DNA of 64,000 bases. It comes from Gemmatimonadota bacterium. Lineage in GTDB: Bacteria; Gemmatimonadota; Gemmatimonadetes; Gemmatimonadales; GWC2-71-9. The notes under the pieces were generated by a model. It was not told the origin of the DNA, ran no database searches, and was given only the letters and a program-made list of their open reading frames with translations. Below, in pieces: positions 826 to 55,628 of this stretch. Made by a program: the position numbers and the translations under genes. The stretch lies in NCBI GenBank assembly GCA_016720805.1, contig JADKJZ010000014.1, forward strand, positions 516,904 through 580,903, given 5' to 3'. Every line of letters begins with the position of its first letter. Position 1 is the first letter of the stretch.

Positions 826-888
826 CGATGATCGATGATCGATGATCGATGATCGATGGTCGATGATCGATGCTGGATGATCGATCAG
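826..888. repeat. Direct heptamer array, about 9 units of CGATGAT and variants (CGATGGT, CGATGCT, GGATGAT, CGATCAG)
   Basis: Read directly. The array starts 2 nt after the GT4 stop and contains the stop (885-887) of the convergent gene. TGA recurs every 7 nt on the + strand. Confidence 0.9.
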
Positions 889-3265: not shown

Positions 3266-4155
3266 GTCGATGCCCGAGGGCTCAACGGCAGCAGGGTGGC
3301 GAGGCGCCGCAGCTGACCGCCCAGGCCGATCGGGCCGCGTCGCGCCGCCTCCGTGAGGTATGCCCGCGCGGTGGGCAGGTCACGCACGTGGAAGAGCTCC
3401 AGCCCGTACTCGAGGTAAATCGCGTGCTCCTTGGCGCGCAGACGCTCGCCCTCGATGGTCAGGCGTTCGGCGGTCCGTCGGATGTTGGTCAACTCGGCGG
3501 CGGCGAAGCGCCGGGTCTGCGCGGTGAGCGAGGCGGGAGTCGGGCGATAGTCCACCAACACCTCGTTCACGCGCACAAAGCCCCACCCCGCATGCGCCAG
3601 TCGCAGCCAGAAGTTGTAGTCCTCCACGCCGATGAGGTCGCGCGATTCATCGAACCCCCCGACGGCCTCCCACGCGGCTCGGCGCAGCATCACGGTGGAC
3701 GTGGGGATCCAGTTCCTGCGCCACAGGACGTCGAAATCGATCTGCGCCGGCGGCGTCGGTTGGACCTTCCCTTCCATGTGGTGCCCCGCGAAGACCACGG
3801 CCACTGCCGGGTCGTCGAGGTGGCGCTGTTGGGTCGCCAGTCGAGTCGGACGGGCCAGGTCGTCGGCGTCGAGCAGCGCAATCCACTCGGTCGTGGCAGC
3901 GCGGATGCCGGTGTTCCGGGCGGCAGCGGGCCCCCCGTTCGCCTGACGGATTACCCGGGCCCCCGCGGCTTCCGCCACGGCAGCGGTGTCATCGGTGGAG
4001 CCGTCGTCGACGACAATGACTTCCTGTGGCGGCACGGTCTGGCGAAGCAGCGATGCCACTGCCTCGCCCACGAATGCGGCGGCGTGATAGGCCGGCATCA
4101 CCGCCGTCACTGGGGGTCCCTCCACGTCGCCTCCTGGGCTGGTCAGCGTGGTCAT
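3262..4155 (-). CDS. Glycosyltransferase family 2
   Basis: 297 aa. GT-A motifs (VTAVMPAYHAAAFVGEAVASLLRQT, VIVVDDGSTDDT, LLDADD). Confidence 0.85.
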   Translation of the reverse strand: MTTLTSPGGDVEGPPVTAVMPAYHAAAFVGEAVASLLRQTVPPQEVIVVDDGSTDDTAAVAEAAGARVIRQANGGPAAARNTGIRAATTEWIALLDADDLARPTRLATQQRHLDDPAVAVVFAGHHMEGKVQPTPPAQIDFDVLWRRNWIPTSTVMLRRAAWEAVGGFDESRDLIGVEDYNFWLRLAHAGWGFVRVNEVLVDYRPTPASLTAQTRRFAAAELTNIRRTAERLTIEGERLRAKEHAIYLEYGLELFHVRDLPTARAYLTEAARRGPIGLGGQLRRLATLLPLSPRAST

Positions 4156-11496: not shown

Positions 11497-11532
11497 ATGG
11501 GGCCGCCGATCTTCCAAGATCGGCGGCCCCAT
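11497..11532. terminator. Perfect inverted repeat (bidirectional terminator candidate) between convergent genes
   Basis: The sequence is ATGGGGCCGCCGATCTT-cc-AAGATCGGCGGCCCCAT. It lies between the protease stop (11475) and the stop of the convergent gene (11565). Confidence 0.6.
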
Positions 11533-22796: not shown

Positions 22797-23642
22797 TTGA
22801 GCCTTGATCGTGCGCCGATTGCGAAGCACTCGCCTGTTGTGCTGATCGCGAACGACCAGGAATGGACCGCCCGGGCCGTCGAGAGCATCCTGGTGGCCAA
22901 CGGCTATCGGACCCATCGGGCCCACACCGCCGCCGAGACGCTGGCGATGGCCGACCGGCTCGATCCCGACCTCGTCATCCTCGACCAGCAACTCCCGGAC
23001 TTCCCCGGCACCGAAGTGTGCCGTCGGCTCCGCGCCGACCAGTCGTTCGGGCCGTCGCTTCCGATCATGATCACCACCGCCGGCCCCTCCGGCCGGCAGC
23101 AGCGGATGGCGGCGTACGAGGCCGGGGCGTGGGAGTTCTACGGCCAGCCCCTCGACGCCGAGGCGCTGCTCCAGAAGCTCGCCGTCTATTGCTCGGCCTA
23201 CGGCGAGGTGCGCCAGTTGCGGAGTGACGCCCTCATCGACGCCGAATCGGGGCTCTACACCCGCCCCGGGTTGACCCGGCGCGCCACCGAGTTGCTCGGG
23301 GAAGCGCGGCGGCACCAGCGCGAGCTCAGCTGTGTCGTCTGGGATATTCCTCGCCGCCTCGATCCCATCCAGGCCTCGAACCTCGGCTCTGGGTTGCGTC
23401 GCCAGGGACGCGCCGCCGATGCCTTCGGCCGGATTGCCCACGACCGTTTCGCCGTGGTGGCGCCCGGGGCGTCCCAGCAGGGTGTGGAGCGACTAGTCGA
23501 ACGCTTCGCGAACGTCTTCCGCGAGTCGCTCGCCGACGGCACCCTCGACATTCCCGCGACCGTCATCACGACCAGTCACGAATCGCTGCCGAGCGATGGC
23601 GTCGAACTGCTGGAGCTGCTCAGCCCGGCGATGGCGGCGTGA
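22797..23642 (+). CDS. Response regulator: REC domain fused to a degenerate GGDEF domain
   Basis: REC motifs (VVLIANDQ.., DLVILDQQLPDFPG). The GGDEF-like region begins DAESGLYTRPGL, with GGDEF replaced by AHDRF and RAAD located 5 residues upstream. Start codon uncertain (TTG at 22797). Confidence 0.7.
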   Translation: MSLDRAPIAKHSPVVLIANDQEWTARAVESILVANGYRTHRAHTAAETLAMADRLDPDLVILDQQLPDFPGTEVCRRLRADQSFGPSLPIMITTAGPSGRQQRMAAYEAGAWEFYGQPLDAEALLQKLAVYCSAYGEVRQLRSDALIDAESGLYTRPGLTRRATELLGEARRHQRELSCVVWDIPRRLDPIQASNLGSGLRRQGRAADAFGRIAHDRFAVVAPGASQQGVERLVERFANVFRESLADGTLDIPATVITTSHESLPSDGVELLELLSPAMAA

Positions 23643-23776
23643 TTAGGTGCTAGTCGTTGGTCGTTAGTTGTTAGGTGGCAATGAGCGAAGGGTGAAATGG
23701 GGCCGAAATCGGCGACCATTTCACCCTTTTTCTCGTAGCCTGTAGTGACCAACAACTAAGGACTAACGACTCACGA
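23643..23776. repeat. Nested hairpin element: heptamer-periodic outer arms (TAGTCGT/TGGTCGT/TAGTTGT) around an intrinsic-terminator-like inner stem
   Basis: The inner stem AAGGGTGAAATGG (23688-23700) pairs with CCATTTCACCCTT (23716-23728) and is followed by a T-tract. The outer left arm 23651-23678 is about 80 percent complementary to 23742-23770. The element abuts both convergent stop codons. Confidence 0.8.
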
Positions 23777-26224
23777 GGTCGTCGCCGGCAACTTGCCCAC
23801 ATCCTCGCCTTCATCCGTCGCGCCGTAGCCGTAGCTGTACGAGTAGTACTTGTACTCCGAGGCGCTGGAGCGCACATCGTTGAGCACCGCGCCAATGAGG
23901 CGGATCGGCAGCTGGTCGACGATCTGCAGCTTCGCCTCGGCGAGGTCGCGTTCCGTCGCGCCCGAGCGCATCACCAGGATCATGTTGCCGGTGAGGGTGC
24001 CGAGGACGAAGGGATCGATGCCGGCGCCGAGCGGCGGGGAGTCGACGATGACGACATCGTACGCCTCACGCATCGAGCTGATCAGCTCGCGCATCAGGAC
24101 ACCACCGAGCAGTTCGGGGCCGTTGCGCTTCCGGCTGCCTGCCGTGATCAGCGTGAGCATCGGATGTGAGGTCTTCCGGGTCAGCTGCGCCAGGTCCAGC
24201 TCGCCGGTCAGGTGGTCGAGCAACCCCGGGCGGCGCTCCTGGCCGAAGGTCCGGTGCAACTCGCCGCGGCGGGTGTCGCCATCGATCAGCAGTGTGCGGT
24301 AGCCCGACTCGGCGAACGAGAGTGCCAGATTCGAGGCCACCAATGACTTGCCGTCACCAGGCGACGGCGAGGAAATGGTGAGCACGCCGCGGCCCTCGCC
24401 CATGGTATGGGAGAGATTGAGGCGAATGGTGCGGAACGCTTCGATGACCTGCGCTGCTTCTTCTGCCGACGGCGTCTCGCCCTTGGCCCGGCGAATCTCC
24501 GGCACGACGCCGAGGATGGTAAGGCCGAGGCCGGAGGTGATCTGGTCGGCGTAGCGGACACGCTTGTCGGTGAGGTCGAGCAGGAACGCCAAGCCCAACC
24601 CGCCGGCGAGGCCAGCGAAGAGGCCGACCGCAATGATGACCGACTTCCGGTTCTTGGATGGGAGCAACGGGGCGACCGCCGGGTCATAGATCGAGAGATC
24701 GCTGAGGGCGCTCGCCTCGCGGAGCCGGGCGTTCTCGGAGCGGCCGGTCAGCGACTTGTAGGTCTCATCGGCAATGTCGACTTCCCGCTTGAGACGGTTC
24801 TCTTCGATCGTCCGGCTCGGAATTCCCTGCAACTCGCGACCGGCGTTGGCCACTTCGGAATCGAGGCGCGCGATGTCGCCGTCGAGGCGCCGGAGCACGG
24901 CCTGCGCGTAGGTCGGCAGCGTCTGCGAGCGGATCTCCCGGATGCGGCGGATCAACTCCGGCAGGTCGTAGACGGGGCCACCGGTGACGCCGCAGGCGCG
25001 GCAATCGTCCGAATATCCCTGCGCGCGCGCAGTCCGGAGCTGGGTTTCGTTGGAGACGAGGTCGCCCAGGACCTGCTTCAATTCGGTGCTGTTGTTGACC
25101 GAGGGGATGGTCAGGAAGAGGTCGACCGCGATCTCGCCACCCTGGGCCTTGGCAAGCGCCTCCTGCAGGTCGCGACGATCGCGGCGCAGCCCTTCGGCGG
25201 CCTCGCGCCGGGCAATGAAGGCCGTGTAGCCCTGCGGCGAGGTGCTGGAGAGACCCGGCGTGACCGGCAGTTCCATGCGCGGCTTGGTGATCGAGCCGGT
25301 CTGGAACGCCAGCAGCGCCTGCTCCGCGTTGCGCAGCCGGTCGTACGCACCGCGCAGCTGGGTGTCGACCACGCCGGCCTCGGCCGTCAGGTTGACCCGC
25401 TTCATCACCGCGGCGCGCGTCTCATACTCCTTCAGCAGGGCGTTCAGCGTCGCCGCCGTCTTCTCGGACTCCTGGCCCGACAGCGTCAGCAACACGAATC
25501 GCGCACCGCGGAAGTCGATGTTGACGCCCAGCCGGCTATTGATGTCTTCCGCCGCCTCGCGCTCCGTGATGGCGTCGAACTCGAACGTCTTCCCGTGCCA
25601 GCGCGGCAGGATCGTCGGGAGCCAGGCGAAGCCGAACTCCTTCCCGACCGAGTCGCCGACCACACCACGACTCTTCCGCGACGTCTTGAGCTGCGTCAAT
25701 TCCCAGCCCTTGCCGTCGGCACTGATCTTCATCTCGTACGCCCCGGGCGTGTAGGACGGCCCGATCTCAAGCCCGCTCAGGAGCGCCGCATCCGGGCCGC
25801 TCGGCCCGTTGGGGAGCGGCGGCCCGCCGAGCCGCTTCGGCCCGATCAGGTAGAGGTGCTGGGCCCGGGCGACGGGCTCGAGCGAGCGGTAGGATCGCAT
25901 GAACTTCTGCCACTGATCGCCACCCAGGACGGCGCCTGCCGAGATCGGCCCGTTGTCGCCGACCGGCATCGCCAGGAGCATCGAGGCCCGCACGACAAAG
26001 CTCTCCGGCCGCATCCGCGAGACCAGGAAGCCCCCGCCCAGGCCCAGCAGCGCCATCAGCAGCACCAGCCACTTGAAGCGCCGCAGGGTCGACAGGTACC
26101 GGGTGATCGGGGAGGTCCGGGGTCCGCCGCTGTTTCCGGTCAATGGCGAACCTGCGCCCAAGGCGCCGCCACCAGCGGGGAAGCTCGGCAAGTTGCCGGA
26201 GAGTGGGGTCAGCTGAGTGTTCAT
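23771..26224 (-). CDS. Fused chain-length determinant (Wzz/EpsF-like) and BY-type tyrosine autokinase (EpsG/Wzc-like)
   Basis: ATG at 26224. N-terminal TM (FKWLVLLMALLGLGGGFLV), a coiled periplasmic region and a second TM. Walker A motif SSPSPGDGKSLVASNLA. C-terminal Tyr cluster EYKYYSYSYGYG. Confidence 0.85.
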   Translation of the reverse strand: MNTQLTPLSGNLPSFPAGGGALGAGSPLTGNSGGPRTSPITRYLSTLRRFKWLVLLMALLGLGGGFLVSRMRPESFVVRASMLLAMPVGDNGPISAGAVLGGDQWQKFMRSYRSLEPVARAQHLYLIGPKRLGGPPLPNGPSGPDAALLSGLEIGPSYTPGAYEMKISADGKGWELTQLKTSRKSRGVVGDSVGKEFGFAWLPTILPRWHGKTFEFDAITEREAAEDINSRLGVNIDFRGARFVLLTLSGQESEKTAATLNALLKEYETRAAVMKRVNLTAEAGVVDTQLRGAYDRLRNAEQALLAFQTGSITKPRMELPVTPGLSSTSPQGYTAFIARREAAEGLRRDRRDLQEALAKAQGGEIAVDLFLTIPSVNNSTELKQVLGDLVSNETQLRTARAQGYSDDCRACGVTGGPVYDLPELIRRIREIRSQTLPTYAQAVLRRLDGDIARLDSEVANAGRELQGIPSRTIEENRLKREVDIADETYKSLTGRSENARLREASALSDLSIYDPAVAPLLPSKNRKSVIIAVGLFAGLAGGLGLAFLLDLTDKRVRYADQITSGLGLTILGVVPEIRRAKGETPSAEEAAQVIEAFRTIRLNLSHTMGEGRGVLTISSPSPGDGKSLVASNLALSFAESGYRTLLIDGDTRRGELHRTFGQERRPGLLDHLTGELDLAQLTRKTSHPMLTLITAGSRKRNGPELLGGVLMRELISSMREAYDVVIVDSPPLGAGIDPFVLGTLTGNMILVMRSGATERDLAEAKLQIVDQLPIRLIGAVLNDVRSSASEYKYYSYSYGYGATDEGEDVGKLPATTS

Positions 26225-30877: not shown

Positions 30878-32515
30878 ATGGCCGTACCCGCCCTGCACGC
30901 GCCCAATGCGGCGCTGCTGATCGACTTCGACAATGTGACCCTTGGCGTCCGTTCCGACCTCACCAAGGAACTCCGCACCCTCCTCAACTCCGACATCATC
31001 AAGGGCAAGGTCGCCGTGCAGCGCGCCTATGCCGATTGGCGCCGCTACCCGCAGTACATCGTGCCGCTGTCGGAATCCTCAATCGACCTGATCTTCGCCC
31101 CCGCCTTCGGGACCAACAAGAAGAACGCCACCGACATCCGGCTCGCCGTCGACGCGGTGGAGCTCGTCTTCACGCGTCCGGAGATCGGCACCTTCATTCT
31201 GCTCTCGGGCGACAGCGACTTCTCGTCGCTGGTGCTGAAGCTGAAGGAGTACGGCAAGTACGTCATCGGCGTCGGCATCCGCGAGTCGGCCTCCGACATC
31301 CTGATCCAGAACTGCGACGAGTACTTCTCGTACTCGGACCTCGCAGGCCTGACCAAGGAGAGTGACGCGCCGTCGGCGCAGCGCGATCCCTGGGAGCTGG
31401 TCGTCGAGGCGGTGCAGAAGATGGCGGCGCAGGGCGACGTCATGCGCTCCGATCGCCTGAAGCAGGTCATGCAGCAGATCGACCCGAACTTCGACGAGAG
31501 CAACGCCGGCTTCAATCGCTTCTCCAAGTTCGTCACCGAGGCCGGGGCGCGCGGCTTGATCCAGGTGATCAAGCAGGAGAACGGGCAGTACGACGTCGCG
31601 CCCGGCAAGGGTGTGCCGGCGGCCGCGCCCGTGAAGGAGAGTCGCCCGCCGCGCGGTCGTGGCGGGCGTGGTCCGTCCGCGACGGCAGTCGCCGCGCCGG
31701 CGCCTGCCGTGCGCGCCGCCGAGGCCGCACCGGCCGATGGCAAGTCCGCCGAAGAGCGGGCAGGGCGTCGTCGGGGTCGTGGTCGCGGACGCGGGCGCGG
31801 GAAGGGCGAGGAGGGCGCAACTCCGTCGACCGCCGCGCCGAGTGCCGCGGCACCGTCGGCGCCGTACGTCGCCGAGCCGAGTGGGCTGACGCTCGCCGAA
31901 GCATTCCACCTTCTGGGTCGTGCGCTCGGTGAATTGCCGACGCCGGCCGGTCACGAGGTGGTCCGCGCCCGCATGGCGGCGTTGCACGGCACCGAGGATG
32001 TGCTGCTCGAAGTGCCGCGCTTCTTCAAGCTGCTGCGGCAGGCCAACGACGCCGAAGTCGCCGATGTCCGCTTGCTCGGCGACGATCAGTACGAGGTGTC
32101 GCCGCACCGGATGGAGCTGGCGATGCAACGTCGGTCCGCGCCAGAAGCCAACGCGGCCCCGGTGCTCGACGCCGAAGGCAACGCGGCGCCGCGTCCGGGG
32201 ATCCGATTCCGCGGCGGTGCGCGGACCCCGGCGTCCTCCGGGATGCCGATGGTCGGCGTGATCAACCTCACGCCGGTCGGTGCCGTGACGCTCGAGGCGC
32301 CGGTGACGAAGCCGGTGGCAGAGGCCCCGACCAAGGCGACGAAGCCCGCCAAGGGGACCAAGGCGGAGGCCAAGCCCGCCGCCAAGGTCGCCAAGGCAGC
32401 GGCACCCGCCAAGACGCCCAAGGCTGCAGCCCCCGCCAAGGCGCCGAAGGCTGCGGCCAAGCCCGCTCCCAAGGCGAAGGCGGCGGTGAAGAAGGCGGCA
32501 CCGAAGAAGAAGTAG
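30878..32515 (+). CDS. NYN-domain protein with two OST-HTH/LOTUS-like modules, an RG-rich linker and a Lys/Ala/Pro-rich basic tail
   Basis: NYN core (LIDFDNV.., KNATDIRLAVDAVE, ILLSGDSDFSSLV). LOTUS-like segments lie at about 31380-31600 and 31880-32100. The linker reads GRRRGRGRGRGRGKG. The tail reads KPAAKVAKAAAPAKTPKAAAPAKAPKAAAKPAPKAKAAVKKAAPKKK. Confidence 0.75.
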   Translation: MAVPALHAPNAALLIDFDNVTLGVRSDLTKELRTLLNSDIIKGKVAVQRAYADWRRYPQYIVPLSESSIDLIFAPAFGTNKKNATDIRLAVDAVELVFTRPEIGTFILLSGDSDFSSLVLKLKEYGKYVIGVGIRESASDILIQNCDEYFSYSDLAGLTKESDAPSAQRDPWELVVEAVQKMAAQGDVMRSDRLKQVMQQIDPNFDESNAGFNRFSKFVTEAGARGLIQVIKQENGQYDVAPGKGVPAAAPVKESRPPRGRGGRGPSATAVAAPAPAVRAAEAAPADGKSAEERAGRRRGRGRGRGRGKGEEGATPSTAAPSAAAPSAPYVAEPSGLTLAEAFHLLGRALGELPTPAGHEVVRARMAALHGTEDVLLEVPRFFKLLRQANDAEVADVRLLGDDQYEVSPHRMELAMQRRSAPEANAAPVLDAEGNAAPRPGIRFRGGARTPASSGMPMVGVINLTPVGAVTLEAPVTKPVAEAPTKATKPAKGTKAEAKPAAKVAKAAAPAKTPKAAAPAKAPKAAAKPAPKAKAAVKKAAPKKK

Positions 32516-32532: not shown

Positions 32533-32610
32533 CGTGAAAGGTGAAACGTGAAAGGTGAAACGGGGGCCAATGTGGGCCTCCGTTTCACCTCTTACGTTTT
32601 ACGCTTCTCG
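32533..32610. repeat. Hairpin element with (SGTGAAA)x4 left arm, a GC inner stem and a degenerate complementary right arm
   Basis: The left side reads CGTGAAA GGTGAAA CGTGAAA GGTGAAA CGGGGGCC, the loop is aatgt, and the right side reads GGGCCTCCG TTTCACC TCTTACG TTTTACG CTTCTCG. It lies between convergent stops at 32515 and 32613. Confidence 0.8.
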
Positions 32611-33760: not shown

Positions 33761-35152
33761 ATGCTGTTCAACAGTTTCATCTTCCTCTTCGCCTTCCTGC
33801 CAGTCACCTACGTGGTGTTCTGGCTGCTGGGGACGGCCCGCAGTCGCTATGTCTGGCTCACCATCACCGGATATGTCTTCTACGGCTACTGGGACTGGCG
33901 CTTCTGCTTCCTGATGGCCTTCTCGACGCTGGTCAGTTATACGGCCGGACTCGGGATGCTCCGCTTCGATGCCGACCCGCGCAAGCGGAAGCTCTGCCTG
34001 ATTGTCCCGATCACGGTCGACCTGGCGCTGCTCGGCTTCTTCAAATATGCAAACTTCGGGCTCGGCGCGTTCCGGGACGCGATGCACGCCACCGGCCTCG
34101 ACGTCTCGGTCCCCCATCTCGACGTGATCCTCCCGATCGGCATCTCCTTCTACACCTTCCACACCATCAGCTACATCGTCGATGCCTATCGGCGCCAGAT
34201 CACCCCGACGAGGAACCTCTGGGAGTTCGCGTCGTACGTCTCCCTCTTCTCGCAGCTGGTCGCCGGACCGATTGTCCGCTTCCGGCAGATCGAGGCAGAC
34301 CTCGAGGCGCTCGGCACCGCGAGCCGGACCCACTGGCTCCGGACCGGCGTGTCGATCTTCGTGGTCGGGCTGGTCGAGAAGGTGATCCTCGCCGACACCC
34401 TGGCCGCGTTCGTCGACCCGGTGCTGGCGCAGTGGGGCACGGCCTCGACCGGCGCCATCTGGCTCGCGATGCTCGGCTACACCTTTCAGCTCTACTTCGA
34501 CTTCTGCGGCTACAGCAGCATGGCCGTCGGCCTCGGCTACATGTTCGGCCTGCGCATCCCGCGCAACTTCAACTCGCCCTACAAGAGCCTCGACCCGTCG
34601 GAATTCTGGAATCGTTGGCACATCTCGCTCTCGACCTGCATGCGAGACTACCTCTACATCCCCTTCGGCGGCAATCGCGGTGGCACGCTCAAGACCTACC
34701 GCAACCTGCTGCTGACGATGCTCATCGGCGGGCTGTGGCACGGCGCGAACTGGACGTTCATTGTCTGGGGACTCTACCACGGGGTATTGCTCGGCGCCCA
34801 TCGTGCCGCCGGCCGGGGCTGGGATGCCCTGCCGGCGCGCCTTCGCCAGGTCGGCATGGTGTTCGCCGCGCTGATCGGCTGGGTCTTCTTCCGGGCGCTC
34901 GACATGCCGATGGCCATCGGGATGCTGCGGAAGATGTTTTCCCCGGTGGCCGGTGTCTCCGTGCCGCAGGCCTCGTGGGCCGCCGCCGCGGTCGTCATCG
35001 CCGCGATCTGGGGGATGTACGGCCCCAACATCTACGACCTCGATTACCGGCCGCGCTGGTGGAAGAACGCCGTGCTGGCCACCGCGTTCGGCGTGGCGCT
35101 GGCGTTGATTGCGGGGGATCGGAGCAGTCCGTTCCTCTACTTCCAGTTCTAG
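33761..35152 (+). CDS. MBOAT family O-acyltransferase (AlgI/DltB-like)
   Basis: MLFNSFIFLFAFLPV N-terminus. Conserved FWNRWHISLSTCMRDYLYIPFGGNRGG and GLWHGANW motifs. Confidence 0.9.
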   Translation: MLFNSFIFLFAFLPVTYVVFWLLGTARSRYVWLTITGYVFYGYWDWRFCFLMAFSTLVSYTAGLGMLRFDADPRKRKLCLIVPITVDLALLGFFKYANFGLGAFRDAMHATGLDVSVPHLDVILPIGISFYTFHTISYIVDAYRRQITPTRNLWEFASYVSLFSQLVAGPIVRFRQIEADLEALGTASRTHWLRTGVSIFVVGLVEKVILADTLAAFVDPVLAQWGTASTGAIWLAMLGYTFQLYFDFCGYSSMAVGLGYMFGLRIPRNFNSPYKSLDPSEFWNRWHISLSTCMRDYLYIPFGGNRGGTLKTYRNLLLTMLIGGLWHGANWTFIVWGLYHGVLLGAHRAAGRGWDALPARLRQVGMVFAALIGWVFFRALDMPMAIGMLRKMFSPVAGVSVPQASWAAAAVVIAAIWGMYGPNIYDLDYRPRWWKNAVLATAFGVALALIAGDRSSPFLYFQF

Positions 35153-35263
35153 GATGATGGATGATGGATGATGGATGATGGACCAACAGCGAAGGGGAGC
35201 GTCGACTGGGGATCGGCGCTCCCCTTCGCCGTTCGCCCATCCATCATCCATCATCCATCATCC
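35151..35263. repeat. Nested hairpin element: (GGATGAT)x4 ... inner 13-bp GC stem ... (ATCATCC)x3.5
   Basis: Left arm at 35152-35179. The inner stem GCGAAGGGGAGCG (35189-35201) pairs with CGCTCCCCTTCGC (35217-35229). Right arm at 35239-35263. The element lies between convergent stops at 35152 and 35269. Confidence 0.9.
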
Positions 35264-38796: not shown

Positions 38797-39000
38797 ATGG
38801 CTACCAAGAAGGCTGCGAAGAAGGCCGCGAAGCGGCCGGCGAAGAAGGCCGCGAAGAAGGCTGCCAAGCGTCCGGCGAAGAAGGCCGCGAAGAAGGGCGC
38901 GAAGAAGGCTGCCAAGCGTCCGGCGAAGAAGGCTGCCAAGAAGGCCGCCAAGCGTCCGGCGAAGAAGGCCGCCAAGAAGGCCGCGAAGAAGGCTGCGTAA
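38797..39000 (+). CDS. Histone H1-like / AlgP-like Lys-Ala-Pro repeat basic protein
   Basis: GGAGG lies 5 nt upstream of the ATG. The product is 67 aa, MATKKAAKKAAKRPAKKAAKKAAKRPAKK.. A hairpin terminator lies downstream. Confidence 0.7.
   Translation: MATKKAAKKAAKRPAKKAAKKAAKRPAKKAAKKGAKKAAKRPAKKAAKKAAKRPAKKAAKKAAKKAA
38806..38997 (+). repeat. In-frame 36-bp (12-aa, KKAAKKAAKRPA) tandem repeat, about 5 copies
   Basis: Read directly from the coding sequence of the H1-like gene. Confidence 0.8.
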
Positions 39001-39041: not shown

Positions 39042-39076
39042 AAAAAGGGCCGGCACGTTGCCGGCCCTATGCTTTT
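39042..39076. terminator. Rho-independent terminator (A-tract, GGGCCGGCA-cgt-TGCCGGCCC, T-tract)
   Basis: The 9-bp perfect GC stem (39047-39067) is flanked by AAAAA on the 5' side and TATGCTTTT on the 3' side. It lies between convergent genes. Confidence 0.75.
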
Positions 39077-39988: not shown

Positions 39989-41143
39989 TCAATCCGCTCG
40001 GAGGATGGCCCCCTTCAAATAGCCGGTTTCCGGGATGGTGATCACCTCCGGATGGTCCACGCCCTGGCCCAGAACCGAGTGCAGCGTCAGCCGGCGGCCA
40101 CTGTCGGCGGCCGCCCCGGCGAGCATCGCGAGGAATTCCGGCCGACGCACATGGAAGGAACAGGACGCACTGACGAGCCAGCCGCCGGGTGCCAGGAGGC
40201 GCATCGCCCGGCGATTCACCTCGTGGTACCCGCGCAGGGCGGCCGGGACGCTGGCCTTGCTCTTCGCGAACGCCGGCGGGTCGACCACGACCACATCGAA
40301 GCGGCGGCCCTCGCGCCCCCACGCCGGGAGGACGTCGAAGGCATCGCCGGTGACGAAGTCGATCTGGCCGAAACCATTGAGGGCGGCGTGTTCCGCCCCG
40401 CGGGCGAGCGCCTCGGCCGAGACGTCGAGCGCGGTCACGGCGGAGGCGCGCTGCGCCAGGTGGAGCGCAAAGGAGCCATGGTAGGAGAAGCAGTCGAGCG
40501 CGGTCCCACCCGCGGGGACGAGTGATCCGGCGAGCTGCCGGTTTTCGCGCTGGTCGAGGAAGGCGCCGGTCTTCTGCCCCGTCCACGGTGCGGCGTACCA
40601 GCGCACCGACCCCTCGCGCACTTCGACCCGCTCCGGCACGGACCCCATCGCCAACTCGACCCGATCGTCGAGTCCCTCGAGACGGCGCGTGGGGACGTCG
40701 TGCCGGAAGAGAATCCCCTCGGGCTGGAACACCTCGCGGAGCGCCTCGACGATCATCGCCCGCTGCGTCTCGAGACCGGCCGAGAGGAGCTGCACCACCA
40801 ACCAGCGGTCGTAGCGGTCGACGATCAGCGCCGGGAGGCCGTCGCCCTCGGCGTGGACGGCACGCCACGCCGACGCATCGAGGCCGAGCCGTCGGTCGCG
40901 GCATTCGGTGAGCCGATCGCGCCACCATCCGCCGTCGATCGGGACGTCGCGTCGCTCGAGCAGGCGCAGGCGAATCTCCGAGCTCGGGGAGCAGAGTGCC
41001 CGCCCCAGGAAGCGGCCGCGCCCGTCGCGCACGGCGACCACGCCTGCTTCCGGCGGGTGCTCGCGCACGTCGCTTCGGTAAATCCACGGGTGCCCCGTGG
41101 TCCAGCGCTTGGCACCGCGATCGCTCACGACGGCATCGGTCAT
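39989..41143 (-). CDS. rlmI: Class I SAM-dependent rRNA (cytosine-C5) methyltransferase, RlmI-like (PUA + MTase)
   Basis: 384 aa. N-terminal motifs GHPWIYRSDV and GRFLGRALCSPSSEIRLRLL. MTase motifs LDCFSYHGSFAL and DVVVVDPPAFAK. Confidence 0.7.
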   Translation of the reverse strand: MTDAVVSDRGAKRWTTGHPWIYRSDVREHPPEAGVVAVRDGRGRFLGRALCSPSSEIRLRLLERRDVPIDGGWWRDRLTECRDRRLGLDASAWRAVHAEGDGLPALIVDRYDRWLVVQLLSAGLETQRAMIVEALREVFQPEGILFRHDVPTRRLEGLDDRVELAMGSVPERVEVREGSVRWYAAPWTGQKTGAFLDQRENRQLAGSLVPAGGTALDCFSYHGSFALHLAQRASAVTALDVSAEALARGAEHAALNGFGQIDFVTGDAFDVLPAWGREGRRFDVVVVDPPAFAKSKASVPAALRGYHEVNRRAMRLLAPGGWLVSASCSFHVRRPEFLAMLAGAAADSGRRLTLHSVLGQGVDHPEVITIPETGYLKGAILRAD

Positions 41144-41194
41144 CGGTCCCTCCGGCTGGCGTTGCCGGGGCGACCCCCGCTGATTTCGTTCCGC

Positions 41195-41818
41195 ATGCGC
41201 GAGAATCTAGCCGCCACCCTCCGTCTCCTGCTCGTGACCGACGACGCCCTCCTCGGCGCGCGCGACCCGATCGCCGTGGCGCGGGCGGCCGTCGCGGGAG
41301 GCGTGACCGCCATCCAGCTCCGGCTCAAGCACGCCTCCGATCGTGATCTGCTCGCGCTGGCCCGTCACCTGGTGGCGTTGCTCCCCGTCCCGATCTTCGT
41401 CAACGACCGACTCGACATCGCCCTCGCCGCCGGCGCGGCGGGCGCCCATCTTGGCGCGGACGACCTTCCCCCAGCCCGAGCTCGGCGCATTGTTCCGGCT
41501 GGCTTCCTCCTCGGAGCGTCGGTGGGCAGTCCCGCCGAGATCGAGCGCGGTCTCGCCGCCGACTATTGGGGAATCGGGCCCCTGCACGGCACCAGCACGA
41601 AGGGCGACGCGGGGGACGCGCTTGGACTTGATGGCGCCGCGACGCTGCTGGCGCAGGCAGGCACGCGGCCATGCGTGGTTATCGGTGGCGTGCTGCCGGA
41701 CGATGTCGCGCCGGCGCTCGCGGCAGGCTTTGCGGGCGTCGCGGTCGTGCGCGGAATTCTGGGGGGGGAGGATGTCGAGGAGAGGGCGAGGAAGTACCGG
41801 ATGATGGATGATGGATGA
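41195..41818 (+). CDS. thiE: Thiamine-phosphate synthase
   Basis: 207 aa. Motifs LLLVTD.., VTAIQLRLK, FVNDRLDIALAAGA.GAHLG and VVIGGV. The last 5 codons (MMDDG) and the stop lie inside a GGATGAT array. Confidence 0.8.
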   Translation: MRENLAATLRLLLVTDDALLGARDPIAVARAAVAGGVTAIQLRLKHASDRDLLALARHLVALLPVPIFVNDRLDIALAAGAAGAHLGADDLPPARARRIVPAGFLLGASVGSPAEIERGLAADYWGIGPLHGTSTKGDAGDALGLDGAATLLAQAGTRPCVVIGGVLPDDVAPALAAGFAGVAVVRGILGGEDVEERARKYRMMDDG

Positions 41819-41865
41819 TGGATAATTGCAGAATGCTGTCATCCATCATCGATCATCGATCATCC
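41799..41865. repeat. Hairpin element (GGATGAT)x3-GGATAAT / loop / CATCC-ATCATCG-ATCATCG-ATCATCC
   Basis: Read directly. The left arm contains the thiE stop (41816-41818). The right arm contains the mltG stop (41860-41862). Confidence 0.9.
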
Positions 41866-42852
41866 CTTCGGACCCCGCACGCGCTTGATGTTCCGCAAAT
41901 GCTCCGCATACTCCACCGCAAAGAGATGCGTCCCGTCGCCGACGGCGACGAAATAGAGCTCGCGCCCCGGGGCGGGGGAGAGCACCGCGTCGATCGCGGC
42001 ATCGCTCGGGTTGCCGATCGGGGTCGGCGGGAGCCCCGGATGGAGATAACTGTTGTACGGTGAGGGGTAGGCGTAGTCCTTGTTGTAGAGCCGCGGCTTC
42101 CGCGCGCCCGAGTCGACGAGGTAGGCGTACTGAATCGTCGGGTCGGCCTGGAGGGGCATGCCGAGGCGGAGGCGGTTGCGGTAGACGGCCGCGATCCGCG
42201 GCAGTTCGGCAGCGCGCATCGCCTCGGCCTCGATGATTGAGGCAAGCGAGATCACGTCCGCTTGATCGAGGTCGGCCGCGTCCGCGCGTGTCTTCCAGTC
42301 GGCCGGCCAGTGCGCGCGGCGCGCGTCGAGGAACGACTCGAGCACCTCCCGCGCGCCGCCGAGGCCGGTGAAGGTGAAGGTCACCGGCCGGAGCCATCCT
42401 TCGACGGTGGCCCCGGGGATGCCGAACTCGCGTCGGAGGGCGGAGTCGCGCGCAACGCGGAGGAGGGTGTCGGCGGGAATCGCGAGCACGCTTTCCGCGC
42501 GGCGTGCCAGGTCGAAGAGGGTGGCGCCTTCGGGGAGGGTGATCTTGAATCGCACCGCGTCGCCCCGCGCGAGCCGGTCAAGCAACGCGGCGGTCGAGCT
42601 GCCGGGGGCGAACTCGTAGACACCGGGCTTGAGCCGCCGGTCGACCCCCTGCATCCGCCCCCGCAGCCGGAACCAGCGGGCATTGGCGATGATGCCACGC
42701 GCCACGAGCGAGTCGCCGATGCTGGCGAGCGTGCTCCCTTTCGGCACACCGACCCGCACCGGCGGACCATCGCCGCCGCCACAGGCCGTCAGGGCCGCCA
42801 GCGTGAGCACCATCAGCCGACGCCGCATCACCGCCTCCGCCCGTCGAGCCAA
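41860..42852 (-). CDS. mltG: Endolytic murein transglycosylase MltG (YceG-like)
   Basis: N-terminal anchor, then YNSYLHPGLPPTPIGNPS and YFVAVGDGTHLFA motifs. Confidence 0.85.
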   Translation of the reverse strand: MARRAEAVMRRRLMVLTLAALTACGGGDGPPVRVGVPKGSTLASIGDSLVARGIIANARWFRLRGRMQGVDRRLKPGVYEFAPGSSTAALLDRLARGDAVRFKITLPEGATLFDLARRAESVLAIPADTLLRVARDSALRREFGIPGATVEGWLRPVTFTFTGLGGAREVLESFLDARRAHWPADWKTRADAADLDQADVISLASIIEAEAMRAAELPRIAAVYRNRLRLGMPLQADPTIQYAYLVDSGARKPRLYNKDYAYPSPYNSYLHPGLPPTPIGNPSDAAIDAVLSPAPGRELYFVAVGDGTHLFAVEYAEHLRNIKRVRGPKG

Positions 42853-43268
42853 CGTTCCAGCACGATCGCGGCGGCCATCGCGTCGATGTCGGCCTTTCGC
42901 TGGCGCGGGGCGACGCCGCGCTCGGTCAGCCGCTCGAGCGTTTCGGCGGTGGTGAAGCTCTCGTCGATCCAGTCGATGGGCAGCGCGGCCCGCGCGGCGA
43001 ACTGCTCGCCCATGGCGCGAGCCGCCTGGGCGGACTCCCCCTCGGCACCCTCATCGTCCAACGGGAGCCCAACCACCAACCCGACCGGATGTTCCCGCTC
43101 GATCAGGTCGAGAAACTGCCCCAACGGCAAGCGCTTCCCCGCCCGGCGCGTGAGCGTGCCGAGCGGGGAAGCGAGGAGCTGCGTCTCGTCGGTGATGGCG
43201 ACGCCGATGCGGGCGTGGCCCCAGTCGAGGGCCATCACCCGGCCGGTGGTTGGGATGGGGGCGGACAT
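42828..43268 (-). CDS. ruvX: Holliday-junction resolvase-like / pre-16S rRNA nuclease (YqgF)
   Basis: Motifs VMALDWGHARIGVAITD and GLVVGLPL..DG. Start ATG at 43268 chosen. Overlaps the mltG start. Confidence 0.8.
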   Translation of the reverse strand: MSAPIPTTGRVMALDWGHARIGVAITDETQLLASPLGTLTRRAGKRLPLGQFLDLIEREHPVGLVVGLPLDDEGAEGESAQAARAMGEQFAARAALPIDWIDESFTTAETLERLTERGVAPRQRKADIDAMAAAIVLERWLDGRRR

Positions 43269-43358
43269 ACGTGCGCACGTGCGGTGGCGTGTAGGGGCGA
43301 AGTCGGGCGAAGTAGGGGCGCAGCATGCCGCGCCCATACAAGCGCCCGTGCGTCGCCC

Positions 43359-47511: not shown

Positions 47512-49470
47512 ATGAGCAGGGATCAGAGTTGGTTGGAACGGACGTTGTACGGGACCGGGACGCCGTCGCCCCTGGCGCAGCTACTCGCGAAGCACGAGGG
47601 GTTGGCGTGGGCGAGCGTTGCGGGGTTGCTCCTCTTCACCAGCTGGATCGTCGAGCGGACCGCGATCTTCGCACCGTGGGTCGCACTCGCAGGCTACGGC
47701 CTCGTCGGCGTGATTGGCGGCCGCCAGCCGGTGCTGCACTTGGTGCGCGCGCTGCGGCGTGGCGCATTCCATCTCGACATCGACTTCCTGATGGTCGTCG
47801 CCGCGATTGGTGCAGCGAGTGTCGGCGCGTGGGCCGAGGGCGCCTTCCTCCTCTTTCTCTTTGCCCTGGCGAACGCACTCGAGGAGTACGCCCTCGACCG
47901 CGCGCGGTCGGCGATCCGCAACCTCGCCGACTTGGCGCCGGCGCAGGCGCGCCTGCTGCGCGATGGCGTCGAGGTGGAGATCCCGGTCGAGCAGGTGCGC
48001 ATCGGTGATGTGCTGGTGGTTCGTCCCGCCGAGCGGTTGCCGGCCGATGGCACGGTACGGACGGGACGATCGGCCATCAATCAGGCCCCGATCACCGGGG
48101 AATCGGTGCCGGTGGAGAAGGAGCCGGGCGATGAGGTCTTCGCCGGCACGGTGAACGGCGATGGCGCCCTCGAGATCACGGCGACGCGCGCGGTCGGTGA
48201 CCGTACACTCGACCGCGTCATCCGGCTGGTCGAGGAGGCGCAGGCGGCGAAGGCACCGGTCCAGCGCATCACCGAGCGGTTCGAGCGGATCTTCGTCCCG
48301 GCCGTCGTGATTGGCGACATCCTGCTGATCGTGGTGCCGGGGCTGATGGGGTGGATGCCGTGGGGCGAGAGCCTCTATCGCGGCATGACGGTACTGGTCG
48401 CGGCCTCGCCCTGCGCGATTGCGCTCGGCGCACCGGCCGCGATGCTGGCCGGCATCGCGCAAGCGGCAAAGCACGGCGTGCTGCTGAAGGGCGGCGCCTC
48501 CCTCGAGGCGCTCGCCACGGTGCGCGCCGTCGCCTTCGACAAGACCGGGACGCTGACGGCGGGGCGCCCCGAGGTGACCGACGTGACCCCGATGCCCGGC
48601 GTCACCATCCCTGAGCTGCTTGGGATGGCAGCGGCGGTCGAAGCGCGGTCACAGCATCCGCTGGCCCAGGCGGTGGTGCGTCGTGCGGCAACGGACGGGG
48701 TCACGTTGCCCGCCGCCGGTGAGCTGCAGAGCATGACGGCGCGGGGCGTGCGGGCCGACGTGGCCGGCCTGCCGGTGCTGATTGGGAGTGCGCGGCTCTG
48801 GACCGATGACGGGATCGCCTTCCCGGCCGAGATCACGGCGGCGCTGGAGGAAATGAGTGCCCGCGGCCGCAGCATGATGATCGTTCGCCATGGCGAGCGT
48901 TGGCTCGGCGTGCTGGGCCTGCTCGATCCGCCGCGGCCCTCGGTGCATGCCACGCTGGAGCGATTGCGGGCGTTGCACCTCAAACCGCTGGTGATGCTCA
49001 CCGGCGATCACCGCGGCGTCGGCGAGGCGATCGGTCGCGAGGTCGGTGTCGATGAGGTGCGCGCTGATCTGCTCCCCGAGGACAAGGTCACCGCCATCCA
49101 CGAACTGATGGCGGCGCACGGGACCATGGTGATGGTGGGCGACGGCGTGAATGACGCGCCGGCGCTCGCCGCGTCGACGGTGGGGATCGCGATGGGAGGC
49201 GCCGGCACCGCCGCCGCGCTCGAGACCGCCGACGCCGCCCTCATGGGCGACGACCTGGCCCGCCTCCCCTGGGCGATCGGCCTGGCCCGGGCCACGCGGC
49301 GGATCGTTTTCCAGAACCTGGCGATCGCCGGCGGCGTCATGCTGACGCTGCTGATCCTGGCGGCGAGCGGGATCCTCACGATCGGCCCCGCAGTGGTCGG
49401 GCACGAGGGGAGCACGCTGGTGGTGATTGCGAATGCGTTGCGGCTGCTGGCGTACAAGGATGATGGATGA
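47512..49470 (+). CDS. Heavy-metal P1B-type ATPase without an N-terminal metal-binding domain (SPC / HEGST motifs; P1B-4-like, Co/Zn-type)
   Basis: GGAG lies upstream of the ATG. Motifs TGES, SPC in the TM region (VAASPCAIALG), DKTGTLT, GDGVNDAPAL and HEGSTLVV. The last 3 codons and the stop lie in a GGATGAT array. Confidence 0.85.
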   Translation: MSRDQSWLERTLYGTGTPSPLAQLLAKHEGLAWASVAGLLLFTSWIVERTAIFAPWVALAGYGLVGVIGGRQPVLHLVRALRRGAFHLDIDFLMVVAAIGAASVGAWAEGAFLLFLFALANALEEYALDRARSAIRNLADLAPAQARLLRDGVEVEIPVEQVRIGDVLVVRPAERLPADGTVRTGRSAINQAPITGESVPVEKEPGDEVFAGTVNGDGALEITATRAVGDRTLDRVIRLVEEAQAAKAPVQRITERFERIFVPAVVIGDILLIVVPGLMGWMPWGESLYRGMTVLVAASPCAIALGAPAAMLAGIAQAAKHGVLLKGGASLEALATVRAVAFDKTGTLTAGRPEVTDVTPMPGVTIPELLGMAAAVEARSQHPLAQAVVRRAATDGVTLPAAGELQSMTARGVRADVAGLPVLIGSARLWTDDGIAFPAEITAALEEMSARGRSMMIVRHGERWLGVLGLLDPPRPSVHATLERLRALHLKPLVMLTGDHRGVGEAIGREVGVDEVRADLLPEDKVTAIHELMAAHGTMVMVGDGVNDAPALAASTVGIAMGGAGTAAALETADAALMGDDLARLPWAIGLARATRRIVFQNLAIAGGVMLTLLILAASGILTIGPAVVGHEGSTLVVIANALRLLAYKDDG

Positions 49471-49542
49471 TGGATGATGGACGATGGATGATGGATGATG
49501 GATGACGGCTCCGATCGATCCATCATCCATCATCCATCATCC
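49458..49542. repeat. Hairpin element (GGATGAT-type)x7 / 12-nt loop / TCC(ATCATCC)x3
   Basis: Read directly. It lies at a co-directional junction between the ATPase and ADH genes. Confidence 0.9.
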
Positions 49543-54053: not shown

Positions 54054-54109
54054 GCGGGGAGCGGGGAGCGAGAAGCGAGGGGTGAGGGGTGAGGGGTGAG
54101 GGGTGAGGG
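54054..54109. repeat. Direct heptamer array GCGGGGA x2, GCGAGAA, GCGAGGG, GTGAGGG x4
   Basis: Read directly. It lies in the divergent region between the AP-superfamily gene and the Nramp gene. No complementary arm was found nearby. Confidence 0.85.
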
Positions 54110-54157
54110 GCACGTTGGCCGGGTATACTCCAGCACTCCCCTGAAACAGGATGTTGT

Positions 54158-55471
54158 ATGGCGACTGAGCCCCCGATCGTGGAACGTCCGAGTGACGCGG
54201 CGCGATGGGCCCGTGGTGGCCCCCGTGCCGTGCGTCGGTTCTGGCACTCCCTCGGGCCGGGGCTGATTACCGGGGCCGCCGATGACGATCCATCCGGCAT
54301 CGCCACCTACTCGATTGCCGGCGCCCGCTTCGGCACCTCGCTGCTCTGGATGTCGGTGCTCACCTGGCCGTTGATGGCAGCGGTGCAGACGATGTGCGCC
54401 CGAATCGGCATGGTGACCGGCCATGGCCTGGCGGCGGCGCTGCAACAGAAGTTTCCCCGCCCCGTGCTGCTGGTGATGTGTGTCGGGTTGATGATTGCCA
54501 ACACCATCAACATCGGCGCCGATCTCGCCGGGATGGCCGACGCCGCCGAGCTGATCACCGGGATCAACTCCCATTTGCTCGTCGTGGTCTTCGGTGGCCT
54601 GATCGCGTGGGCGACGGTCCAGCTGCGCTACGCCGCCTTTGCGCGCATCCTCAAGTGGCTCGCCCTGGTGCTTGGCGTCTACATCATCGCGGCGATCGAT
54701 CTCAAGCCGGTCTGGAGCTCGGTGCTGCACGACACCTTCCTCCCCTCCGGCCTCGATTCGCGCGAGGCGTGGTCCACCGTGGTCGCGATCCTCGGCACGA
54801 CGATCTCGCCCTACCTCTTCTTCTGGCAGGCGTCGCAGGAAGTCGAGGAAGAGAAGGCCGCCGGCAAGGTGACGGAGGAAGCCCGGCGCGGCGCGACGGC
54901 GGCGCAGCTCCGCGCCCGGAAGCTCGACGTCGGCTTCGGCACCTTCTTCTCCAACCTCGCGATGTTCTTCATCATCCTGACGACGGCGCTGACCCTGCAC
55001 AAGGCGGGCATTACCGAACTCGCGACCGGCGCCGAGGTGGCGAAGGCGCTCGAGCCGCTCGCCGGGCGCTTCTCGTCGTGGCTGTACGCCATCGGCGTGA
55101 TCGGCACCGGCGCGCTGGCGATTCCCACGCTGGCCGGCTCCGCGGCGTACGCCTTCGCCGAGACGCTTGGCTGGCAGCAAGGGATGGACGAGGACTTCCG
55201 TCGCGCCGAGCCGTTCTACGCCGTGATCGTCGTGGCGCTGCTGATCGGCGTCCTGCTCGATTTCGCCAACGTCTCGCCCGTCAAGGCGCTGTACTGGACC
55301 GCCGTCCTCAACGGCGTGCTGGCGCCCTTCCTGCTCACGGCGATTCTGATGGTCGCCGGCAACAAGGCCATCATGCAGGGGCAGCCGTCGTCGCGGCTCG
55401 GGATGGTGACGGTCGGCATCACGACGGTGGTGATGTTTGGGGCGGCGATTGCGATGTTTGTGGCGAGATGA
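54158..55471 (+). CDS. mntH: Nramp family divalent metal (Mn2+/Fe2+) transporter
   Basis: GPGLITGAADDDPSGIATYS motif. 437 aa and polytopic. Confidence 0.85.
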   Translation: MATEPPIVERPSDAARWARGGPRAVRRFWHSLGPGLITGAADDDPSGIATYSIAGARFGTSLLWMSVLTWPLMAAVQTMCARIGMVTGHGLAAALQQKFPRPVLLVMCVGLMIANTINIGADLAGMADAAELITGINSHLLVVVFGGLIAWATVQLRYAAFARILKWLALVLGVYIIAAIDLKPVWSSVLHDTFLPSGLDSREAWSTVVAILGTTISPYLFFWQASQEVEEEKAAGKVTEEARRGATAAQLRARKLDVGFGTFFSNLAMFFIILTTALTLHKAGITELATGAEVAKALEPLAGRFSSWLYAIGVIGTGALAIPTLAGSAAYAFAETLGWQQGMDEDFRRAEPFYAVIVVALLIGVLLDFANVSPVKALYWTAVLNGVLAPFLLTAILMVAGNKAIMQGQPSSRLGMVTVGITTVVMFGAAIAMFVAR

Positions 55472-55628
55472 TGGATGATGGATGATGGATGATGGATGAT
55501 GGATGGCGGGAAAGTGAGCCGGCATCGGCCATGGCGAGCGGTCCAGCATCCCCGATCCATCATCTATCATCCATCATCCATCATCCATCATCCATCATCC
55601 ATCATCCATCATCCATCATCCATCATCC
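55466..55628. repeat. Largest hairpin element: (GGATGAT-type)x5.5 / about 50-nt spacer / (ATCATCC)x10
   Basis: The left arm (55466-55507) includes the Nramp stop at 55469-55471. The right arm (55559-55628) is 10 near-perfect units. Confidence 0.9.

Follow-up and report, generated by a model that had tools for sequence, protein, structure and literature searches.

Among long simple-sequence repeats, heptanucleotides are reported to be the most common class in many bacteria (Mrazek 2007, cited in PMC4679880 and PMC4692102). In Xanthomonas (unit GGGAATC) and Nostoc (unit GGGGAYT), heptameric tandem repeats are found in intergenic regions, typically as arrays of about four units (Rehm et al. 2015, PMC4692102). 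There are about 185 of these heptamers per genome, with 70-75 convergent opposite-strand pairs per genome that are capable of forming stem-loops; they lie within about 50 nt of a stop codon or overlap it, with the G-rich strand on the coding strand (PMC4692102). Their presence at a given gene is not conserved among related species, and transcript starts and ends are more frequent at these repeats than at controls (PMC4692102). Direct repeats of another heptamer, TAACTGA, occur in Beggiatoaceae, Cyanobacteria, and Bacteroidetes, and their forward strand carries stop codons in all three frames (MacGregor 2015, PMC4679880). Most of these arrays are located just upstream of start codons, where they were proposed to be sites for translational regulators, and only one set is indirect; in 13 cases, the array overlaps the stop codon of the upstream ORF and is thus necessarily located at an ORF end (PMC4679880).

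The repeat analyzed here lies between the convergent genes thiE and mltG of a Gemmatimonadales genome, in a 64-kb stretch of DNA that we call the window. It represents, at one locus, a little-known type of bacterial repeat that has been described before, and not a new system; its closest precedent is the Xanthomonas GGGAATC repeats. Both are made of tandem 7-nt units, form a convergent, stem-loop-capable pair, lie close to stop codons, and vary in presence and number. However, Xanthomonas units contain tracts of three or more Gs and no stop codon, whereas the SGATGAT units of the thiE-mltG element have at most GG and contain a stop, and the arms terminate all three frames. The host also differs, and in Gemmatimonadales different unit families occur side by side and can be nested in a single palindrome. 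With the TAACTGA arrays, the element shares three-frame stops and the overlap with upstream stop codons, but those arrays are direct repeats near start codons, whereas this element is an inverted pair between two 3' ends. The element combines the properties described in these two studies, in another phylum, with a non-quadruplex unit and with coexisting unit families. Our search of the literature for the exact repeat string, or for heptanucleotide repeats in Gemmatimonadetes, returned nothing relevant.

Abundant extragenic palindromes are also known as REP/BIME elements, which occupy 3' and intercistronic spacers in enterobacteria and pseudomonads, are thought to act as mRNA 3' stabilizers or terminator-like structures, and bind gyrase and IHF. 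REPs are unique palindromes of 20-40 nt that carry a GTAG/CGTC tag and are mobilized by RAYT transposases. The elements described below resemble REP/BIME in being abundant palindromes of 3' and intercistronic spacers, but they have tandem heptamer arms of variable length and no tag. MITEs have terminal inverted repeats around a conserved internal sequence, and a target-site duplication; the elements of the window have unrelated centres, and the thiE-mltG element shows no duplicated flank. Finally, bidirectional intrinsic terminators also provide a single stable hairpin for two convergent transcripts, directly after both stops; they have a U-tract, however, whereas the thiE-mltG hairpin has no U- or A-tract on either side, a stem of 43% GC, and periodic mismatches.

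Results

Structure of the thiE-mltG element

The thiE gene (41195..41818, + strand) encodes a thiamine-phosphate synthase of 207 aa, as deduced from the ORF translation and a match to Pfam TMP-TENI (E=2e-43), and ThiE homologues of 207 aa align with 100% coverage. Facing it, mltG (41860..42828, - strand) encodes a YceG-like endolytic transglycosylase (Pfam YceG, E=1.5e-72); its maximal ORF reaches 42852, and its likely start at 42828 overlaps the ruvX stop, as at syntenic loci. Gene identities near the element were taken from Pfam and synteny, because the GC3-based gene caller missed thiE and called an antisense shadow instead.

Between and into these two genes, positions 41799-41865 consist of two heptamer arrays in inverted orientation, separated by an 11-nt centre. 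The left arm (41799..41826, + strand) comprises three GGATGAT units followed by GGATAAT, with TGA in all three frames, and its first GG is part of the CGG codon of a conserved ThiE arginine. The centre, or loop (41827..41837), reads TGCAGAATGCT and is predicted to fold into a small inner stem of 3 bp. The right arm (41838..41865, - strand) reads GGATGAT CGATGAT CGATGAT GGATGAC on the - strand. TRF assigns period 7 to both arms, with 3.6 and 3.7 copies and 100% and 94% match. In the 64-kb window, GGATGATGGATGAT has 39 matches with at most 2 mismatches, versus 0.42 expected; the abundance of the repeat is thus far from chance.

The predicted RNA fold of the element reaches -43.7 kcal/mol on the + strand (z=-5.63, with 0 of 200 shuffles folding as well) and -40.2 kcal/mol on the - strand (z=-5.27). 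The stem is about 28 bp long, with 43% GC, and is interrupted by a G.G or C.C mismatch at each seventh position, because GGATGAT-type units in one arm face CGATGAT-type units in the other. As the mismatches are G.G and C.C, the strand asymmetry of this hairpin is uninformative on an RNA-level versus a DNA-level role.

The element is bordered by GAAGTACC before GGATGAT on the + strand and by CCGAAG before GGATGAT on the - strand, and the stem is followed by CCCTTCGGACC and GGTACTTCCTC on the + and - strands, respectively. No U-tract is present 3' of the stem on either strand, and a consensus terminator scan of positions 41000-43000 yielded 0 sites. We saw no target-site duplication or duplicated flank at the element, and its flanks lack the GTAG or CGTC tetranucleotide that is conserved at one end of REP palindromes (PMC3733652). 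An Rfam search of the whole window gave zero matches at gathering thresholds. The sole Rfam match with E<=1 near the hairpin, to a plant miRNA family, is spurious (22.8 bits against an 80-bit cut-off).

Stop codons of both genes within the arms

A sequence-only reading of this region had noted that both genes end inside the hairpin, and the ORFs and the sequence bear this out for the two genes and for the interval between them. The thiE ORF ends in ...KYRMMDDG*, of which the last five residues (MMDDG) and the stop are encoded by the left arm; the stop TGA (41816..41818, + strand) belongs to the third unit, at offset +17 from the array start. The mltG ORF ends in ...VRGPKG*, and the array contributes only its final Gly codon (GGA, 41865-41863, - strand) and its stop TGA (41862-41860, - strand), in the first unit of the right arm at offset +3. 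The Pfam domains end 19 residues ahead of the stop in ThiE (TMP-TENI) and 6 residues ahead of it in MltG (YceG). The 41 nt from stop to stop (41819-41859) are entirely hairpin.

This arrangement follows from the unit itself. In GGATGATGGATGATGGATGAT, TGA occurs in all three frames; the complementary strand, ATCATCC, is stop-free. As the unit carries a TGA and its length of 7 nt is not divisible by 3, every frame is stopped within three units, and in the palindrome the stop-bearing strand of each arm faces the gene that reads into that arm. An ORF that runs into an SGATGAT arm reads only 1, 3 or 5 codons of the array before it stops; these encode G, DDG or MMDDG (offsets +3, +10 and +17), and since the inward strands stop all frames, each of the two convergent genes has to end within that distance. 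Within the window, offset +3 is found in mltG and in the gene ending at 55471, offset +10 in the gene ending at 49470 (tail KDDG*), and offset +17 in thiE. Given arrays of a TGA-bearing heptamer at both ORF ends, the two in-arm stops are therefore forced and represent no extra coincidence.

Comparison with orthologous loci

Among 120 ThiE homologues, conservation extends through ...AARRYR, and many proteins stop right at that point. The MMDDG tail is present in four close relatives. Tails SSMIDHR and STMIDDR coincide with CGATCAT/CGATGAT arrays, NGER-type tails coincide with other heptamers, the MMDDG, SSMIDHR and STMIDDR tails are confined to array-bearing genes, and no array-free orthologue ending in MMDDG was seen among the 120 homologues. 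The array-free thiE ends at syntenic loci read TAT CGA TAG (L132), TAT CGC TAG (L134), and TAT CGA TGA (L135). As array-free ThiE proteins end at RYR*, the conserved end is intact and MMDDG is a lineage-specific appended tail; the earlier suggestion of an appended tail is thus supported by array-free orthologues that have neither the tail nor the same stop position. For MltG, 120 homologues share ...NI[KR]RVR, followed in most of them by 0-4 variable residues, and the closest ones end in VRSR, VRGR, VRAP or VRQ. The accompanying idea that ancestral C-terminal codons had been replaced finds no demonstrable case, as ThiE keeps ...KYR and MltG keeps ...NIKRVR plus a short variable tail.

We also compared syntenic loci from independent assemblies, with the genes Peptidase_M50, rho, ruvX and mltG, then thiE facing mltG, and then a PUA-methyltransferase gene. 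Their thiE-mltG spacers are completely different in content. At L130, (CACCCCT)x4-5 is flanked by GGATGAT arms, while L001-L004 carry a CGATGAT arm, a 100-nt insert, and a CGATCAT/CGATGAT palindromic arm. This last palindrome stands alone at L005-L007, where the two stops are 4 nt apart. At L131, GTGAACG/GTGACCA arms are opposed to GTTACTG arms and the MltG stop is a TAA in the first unit; at L132, the spacer is 350 nt long with several arrays, and the MltG stop lies in the first unit, AGATGAC. Four spacers (L008, L133, L134 and L135) are without heptamers. Heptamer presence, unit type and number therefore all vary among orthologous spacers. In addition, L001 and L002-L004 have identical MltG but are set apart by precisely one 7-nt unit, the hallmark of slippage. 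On this comparison, a heptamer element has clearly been gained or remodelled at the thiE-mltG site.

Other features were observed at these loci. The thiE-mltG spacer of L133 contains three direct copies of about 95 nt (2150-2410), and L002 has a GTCATCCCGAGCGCAGCGAGGGA-type palindrome between heptamer arms (3990-4075). Two metagenome contigs, L007 (ending at 4040) and L009 (ending at 4027), break within about 70 nt of the mltG stop, in or beside the spacer repeat, and heptamer elements may therefore break short-read assemblies. In the rho-ruvX spacer of relatives (L002 2440-2566, and the same region of L005 and L008), heptamer arms with units GTCGTGA, GTCGTTG and ATGAGTC are found; in L002 and L008, these arms enclose a nearly identical core of about 50 nt and end directly at the ruvX ATG. 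The corresponding site of the window (43269-43358) is without heptamer arms and without this core.

Heptamer elements in the window

The window holds 5-6 SGATGAT elements. One is a single (CGATGAT)x8.6 array (826..885, + strand), located 4 nt after the TAA stop of the upstream + strand ORF. Another, between convergent genes (35152..35263), is composed of (GGATGAT)x4.4, an inner GC-rich hairpin, and (ATCCATC)x3.7; one TAG stop overlaps the array start and the other lies 5-8 nt outside the opposite arm. At 49458..49542, the element follows a + strand gene whose tail (...YKDDG*) and stop are encoded by the array at offset +10. The element at 55466..55628, between co-directional genes, has one arm of 5.6 units and one of 10.6; a TGA of the array (AGA TGA, offset +3) terminates the upstream gene, and the element ends just ahead of the AGGAG/ATG of the next gene. 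Two further elements have this architecture but are built from other units. The first one (23648..23776) has TAGTCGT and GACTAAC arms with an inner hairpin and then a T-run, and the stop of the convergent - strand gene is a TGA that lies in unit 1 of the right arm. The second one (32534..32610, GTGAAAG/GTGAAAC) also lies between convergent genes. Among the window copies, the centres show no relationship to one another and measure 11 to 54 nt. For some elements, G-U pairs make the predicted RNA fold differ between strands, as in the region 23640-23785 (-78.9 versus -62.1 kcal/mol on opposite strands) and at L131 (-56.1 versus -42.3 kcal/mol). Other convergent spacers of the window carry ordinary GC-rich palindromes, for example at 11497-11532 (17-bp stem), and the hairpin thus seems to be the common denominator of such sites.

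Several other repeats and gene ends were noted in the window. A single (GAGGGGT)x4.9 array at 54077-54110, apparently 5' of a gene or between divergent ones, could form a G-quadruplex and is similar to the GGGGAYT repeats of Nostoc; the L130 thiE-mltG element has this unit at its centre. Positions 8520-10628 hold 6.8 tandem copies of a 309-nt repeat (78% match), and here the - strand shows successive open frames of high GC3, mostly of 102 codons, closed by in-frame stops. Coding tandem repeats lie within or at ORF ends at 38806-38997 (24-48 nt) and 32326-32509 (15-27 nt); they are AAGAAGGCCGCG-like and predicted to be Lys/Ala-rich. At 57636/57637, the stop codons of convergent ORFs abut, with no spacer and no inverted repeat. 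A rare canonical-looking terminator is found at 39046-39068, with a 10-bp GC-rich palindrome (AGGGCCGGC...GCCGGCCCT) and a T-run on the - strand.

Heptamer arrays in Gemmatimonadales and other phyla

Scanning one genome per species for four SGATGAT units revealed at least 120 loci. Among the matches listed, 31 come from Gemmatimonadales/Gemmatimonadota MAGs and the remaining ones mostly from Bacteroidota, Verrucomicrobiota, Planctomycetota and relatives; inverted pairs account for 12 Gemmatimonadales loci and 5 others among these listed matches. For the 92 non-Gemmatimonadales arrays listed, a long ORF ends at the array start on the SGATGAT strand in 33 cases, and on the other side in 5.

Among the tandem repeats in 332 kb of Gemmatimonadales DNA, those with period 7 prevail (172 rows, versus 59 with period 6 and 22 with period 8), and we found 34 non-redundant inverted heptamer pairs. 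These are built from many units, including GTCGTGA, GAGTCNT, GTGACCA, GACGGAT, GGTGAAC, AGGTCGT, GAAGCGA, GAAGGGA and ACGGCGA, and some are nested, with GAAGCGA outside GGATGAT on both sides. Half of the pairs (17) are flanked by convergent ORFs; of the others, 16 are entered by a single ORF and 1 by none. ORF stops at these pairs range from -28 to +24 nt relative to the array start, 26 of the 49 being at or inside the array. When only the strict SGATGAT register is considered, an in-array TGA at offset 3, 10 or 17 is used in 12 of 34 cases. The arms of a pair are often unequal in unit number (e.g., 5.6 versus 10.6). Together with the regular G.G/C.C mismatches, this indicates that perfect pairing is not being maintained.

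The strand reading inward in these pairs is always the C-poor one. It contains a stop in every T-containing unit family (12 named units, about six independent families), and the four stop-less units have no T. When the bases of the units are permuted, only 27-80% of the arrangements contain a stop, which corresponds to a joint p of roughly 0.01 over these approximately six independent families; the enrichment of stops on the inward strand is thus mildly significant relative to permutations.

Discussion

Origin of the element

We are highly confident in a descriptive account in which slippage built the palindrome, the stops are forced, and the tails are appended. Replication slippage of 7-nt units would have extended the arrays in place. 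At thiE, the seed may have been the ancestral final codon and stop, CGA TGA; a register shift by one base, from CGA TGA T to CGG ATG AT, would then have put ThiE into the frame that stops 17 nt into the array. As the array creeps over a stop codon, its three-frame stops would keep C-terminal extensions short and harmless. Seeding by CGA TGA alone leaves unexplained why one and the same unit should prevail at many unrelated loci and across several MAGs. The sequence-only reading had proposed insertion into, or recruitment at, both 3' ends, and while its description of the sequence is confirmed, this interpretation is partly supported: a gain or remodelling at the site is consistent with the orthologues, and insertion of a ready-made element is less likely than growth in place. 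Growth in place is favoured because CGA TGA makes up six-sevenths of CGATGAT, because the unit types of the two arms differ, and because strains differ by one unit.

The recurrence of SGATGAT at many unrelated sites of the window and in several Gemmatimonadales MAGs, and the occupation of whole intergenic spaces, as by REP/BIME, would also be expected from a mobile REP- or MITE-like element, inserted by a transposase (e.g., RAYT) at thiE-mltG and other 3' ends and bringing its own stops. However, copies share no internal sequence, their centres being unrelated and ranging from 11 to about 100 nt, the flanks show neither target-site duplication nor GTAG/CGTC tag, and the arms of one element differ in unit type and copy number. 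In addition, the orthologous site holds different heptamer families in relatives, with single-unit differences between strains, and the first unit coincides with a conserved Arg codon and the ancestral stop; we thus regard mobility as quite unlikely. Fast turnover and unit-number polymorphism, like the unequal arms, fit with neutral microsatellite debris that accumulates in tolerant 3' spacers. In many bacteria, long simple-sequence repeats are reportedly most often heptanucleotides, and SGATGAT arrays in many other phyla adjoin ORF ends without a partner arm. The hairpin would then be functionless and the polarity of the arrays a result of purifying selection against protein extension. This also seems unlikely, as independent arrays are not expected to give 34 same-unit inverted pairs within 300 nt or symmetric nesting such as GAAGCGA outside GGATGAT on both sides, and as many arrays begin a few nucleotides past an intact native stop, where a filter against extension would not act.

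A function at the DNA level is, in our opinion, very unlikely. Strict unit identity across loci could represent a recognition sequence, and the binding of gyrase and IHF by REP/BIME offers a parallel for a protein-binding array, a cruciform or a G-quadruplex that affects supercoiling, replication or chromosome organization. But many unrelated units share the same architecture, which argues against one sequence-specific binder, and G-U-compatible substitutions in some arms suggest pairing at the RNA level. Xanthomonas heptamers have been interpreted as G-quadruplex formers (PMC4692102); GGATGAT, however, has GG runs only and CGATGAT has none, which makes a stable G-quadruplex unlikely, and in the absence of a G3 tract the quadruplex reading of the Xanthomonas repeats does not apply to SGATGAT.

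Possible role at transcript ends

Overall, the explanation that we favour, as a probable one, is an SGATGAT palindrome belonging to a dispersed family of elements located just after gene 3' ends, grown in place, with a putative role at transcript ends. Taken alone, an RNA 3'-end role for the hairpin has about even chances. The stem, at -40 to -44 kcal/mol on either strand, would form in both convergent transcripts and could serve as a bidirectional transcript-end structure, either as a hairpin-type terminator or as a REP-like barrier to 3' exonucleases. Such a role is favoured by the exclusively 3' location of heptamer palindromes, by the ordinary GC-rich palindromes in other convergent spacers of the window, and by the lack of enrichment of canonical terminators, and it is consistent with the G-U-compatible substitutions that in some members make one RNA strand fold much better. 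Speaking against a classical terminator are the lack of a U-tract, the often unequal arms, and the elements that abut the next start codon. Elements that reach the start of the next co-directional gene are awkward for a strong terminator, and a REP-like 3' exonuclease barrier, or intercistronic stabilizer, may fit these co-directional cases better.

Canonical terminators with a hairpin and a T-run are not enriched window-wide (19 found versus about 19.6 expected). Raw MFE values in 120-nt windows downstream of 46 gene ends were not distinct from those of random windows, but this comparison carries no information, since coding DNA rich in GC folds with equal strength. Two other roles were considered and rejected: a CsrA sponge based on GGA motifs, as GGA is absent from the CGATGAT variants and the stem hides the motifs, and anti-Shine-Dalgarno mimicry by ATCATCC, for which the match is too weak.

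A broader proposal is that Gemmatimonadales, and perhaps other lineages, systematically cap their 3' ends with self-assembling heptamer palindromes selected for inward three-frame stops; we consider it rather doubtful. That such caps would combine a fail-safe translation stop with a transcript-end module, seeded by the last codon and the stop (such as CGA TGA), and would be more than microsatellite debris, is likewise a speculative suggestion to which we give little credence.

Implications

For annotation, odd short C-terminal tails (MMDDG, DDG, SSMIDHR, NGER, and others) and the associated stop positions in these genomes are repeat-derived and evolutionarily labile, and array-encoded tails should not be counted as functional motifs. 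At a single site, the window illustrates a repeat that grows from a stop-codon context, forms a palindrome common to two convergent genes, and is rendered harmless by stops in all frames. The element is mainly useful as a clear illustration and as a pointer to a 3'-end architecture across the lineage. If the proposed function is true, these elements would be the most prominent signals visible at 3' ends in a high-GC lineage without enriched canonical terminators. They would also extend the heptamer phenomenon of Xanthomonas and Nostoc to another phylum and to a non-G-quadruplex unit, which would argue that the common denominator of these repeats is the hairpin, not the quadruplex.
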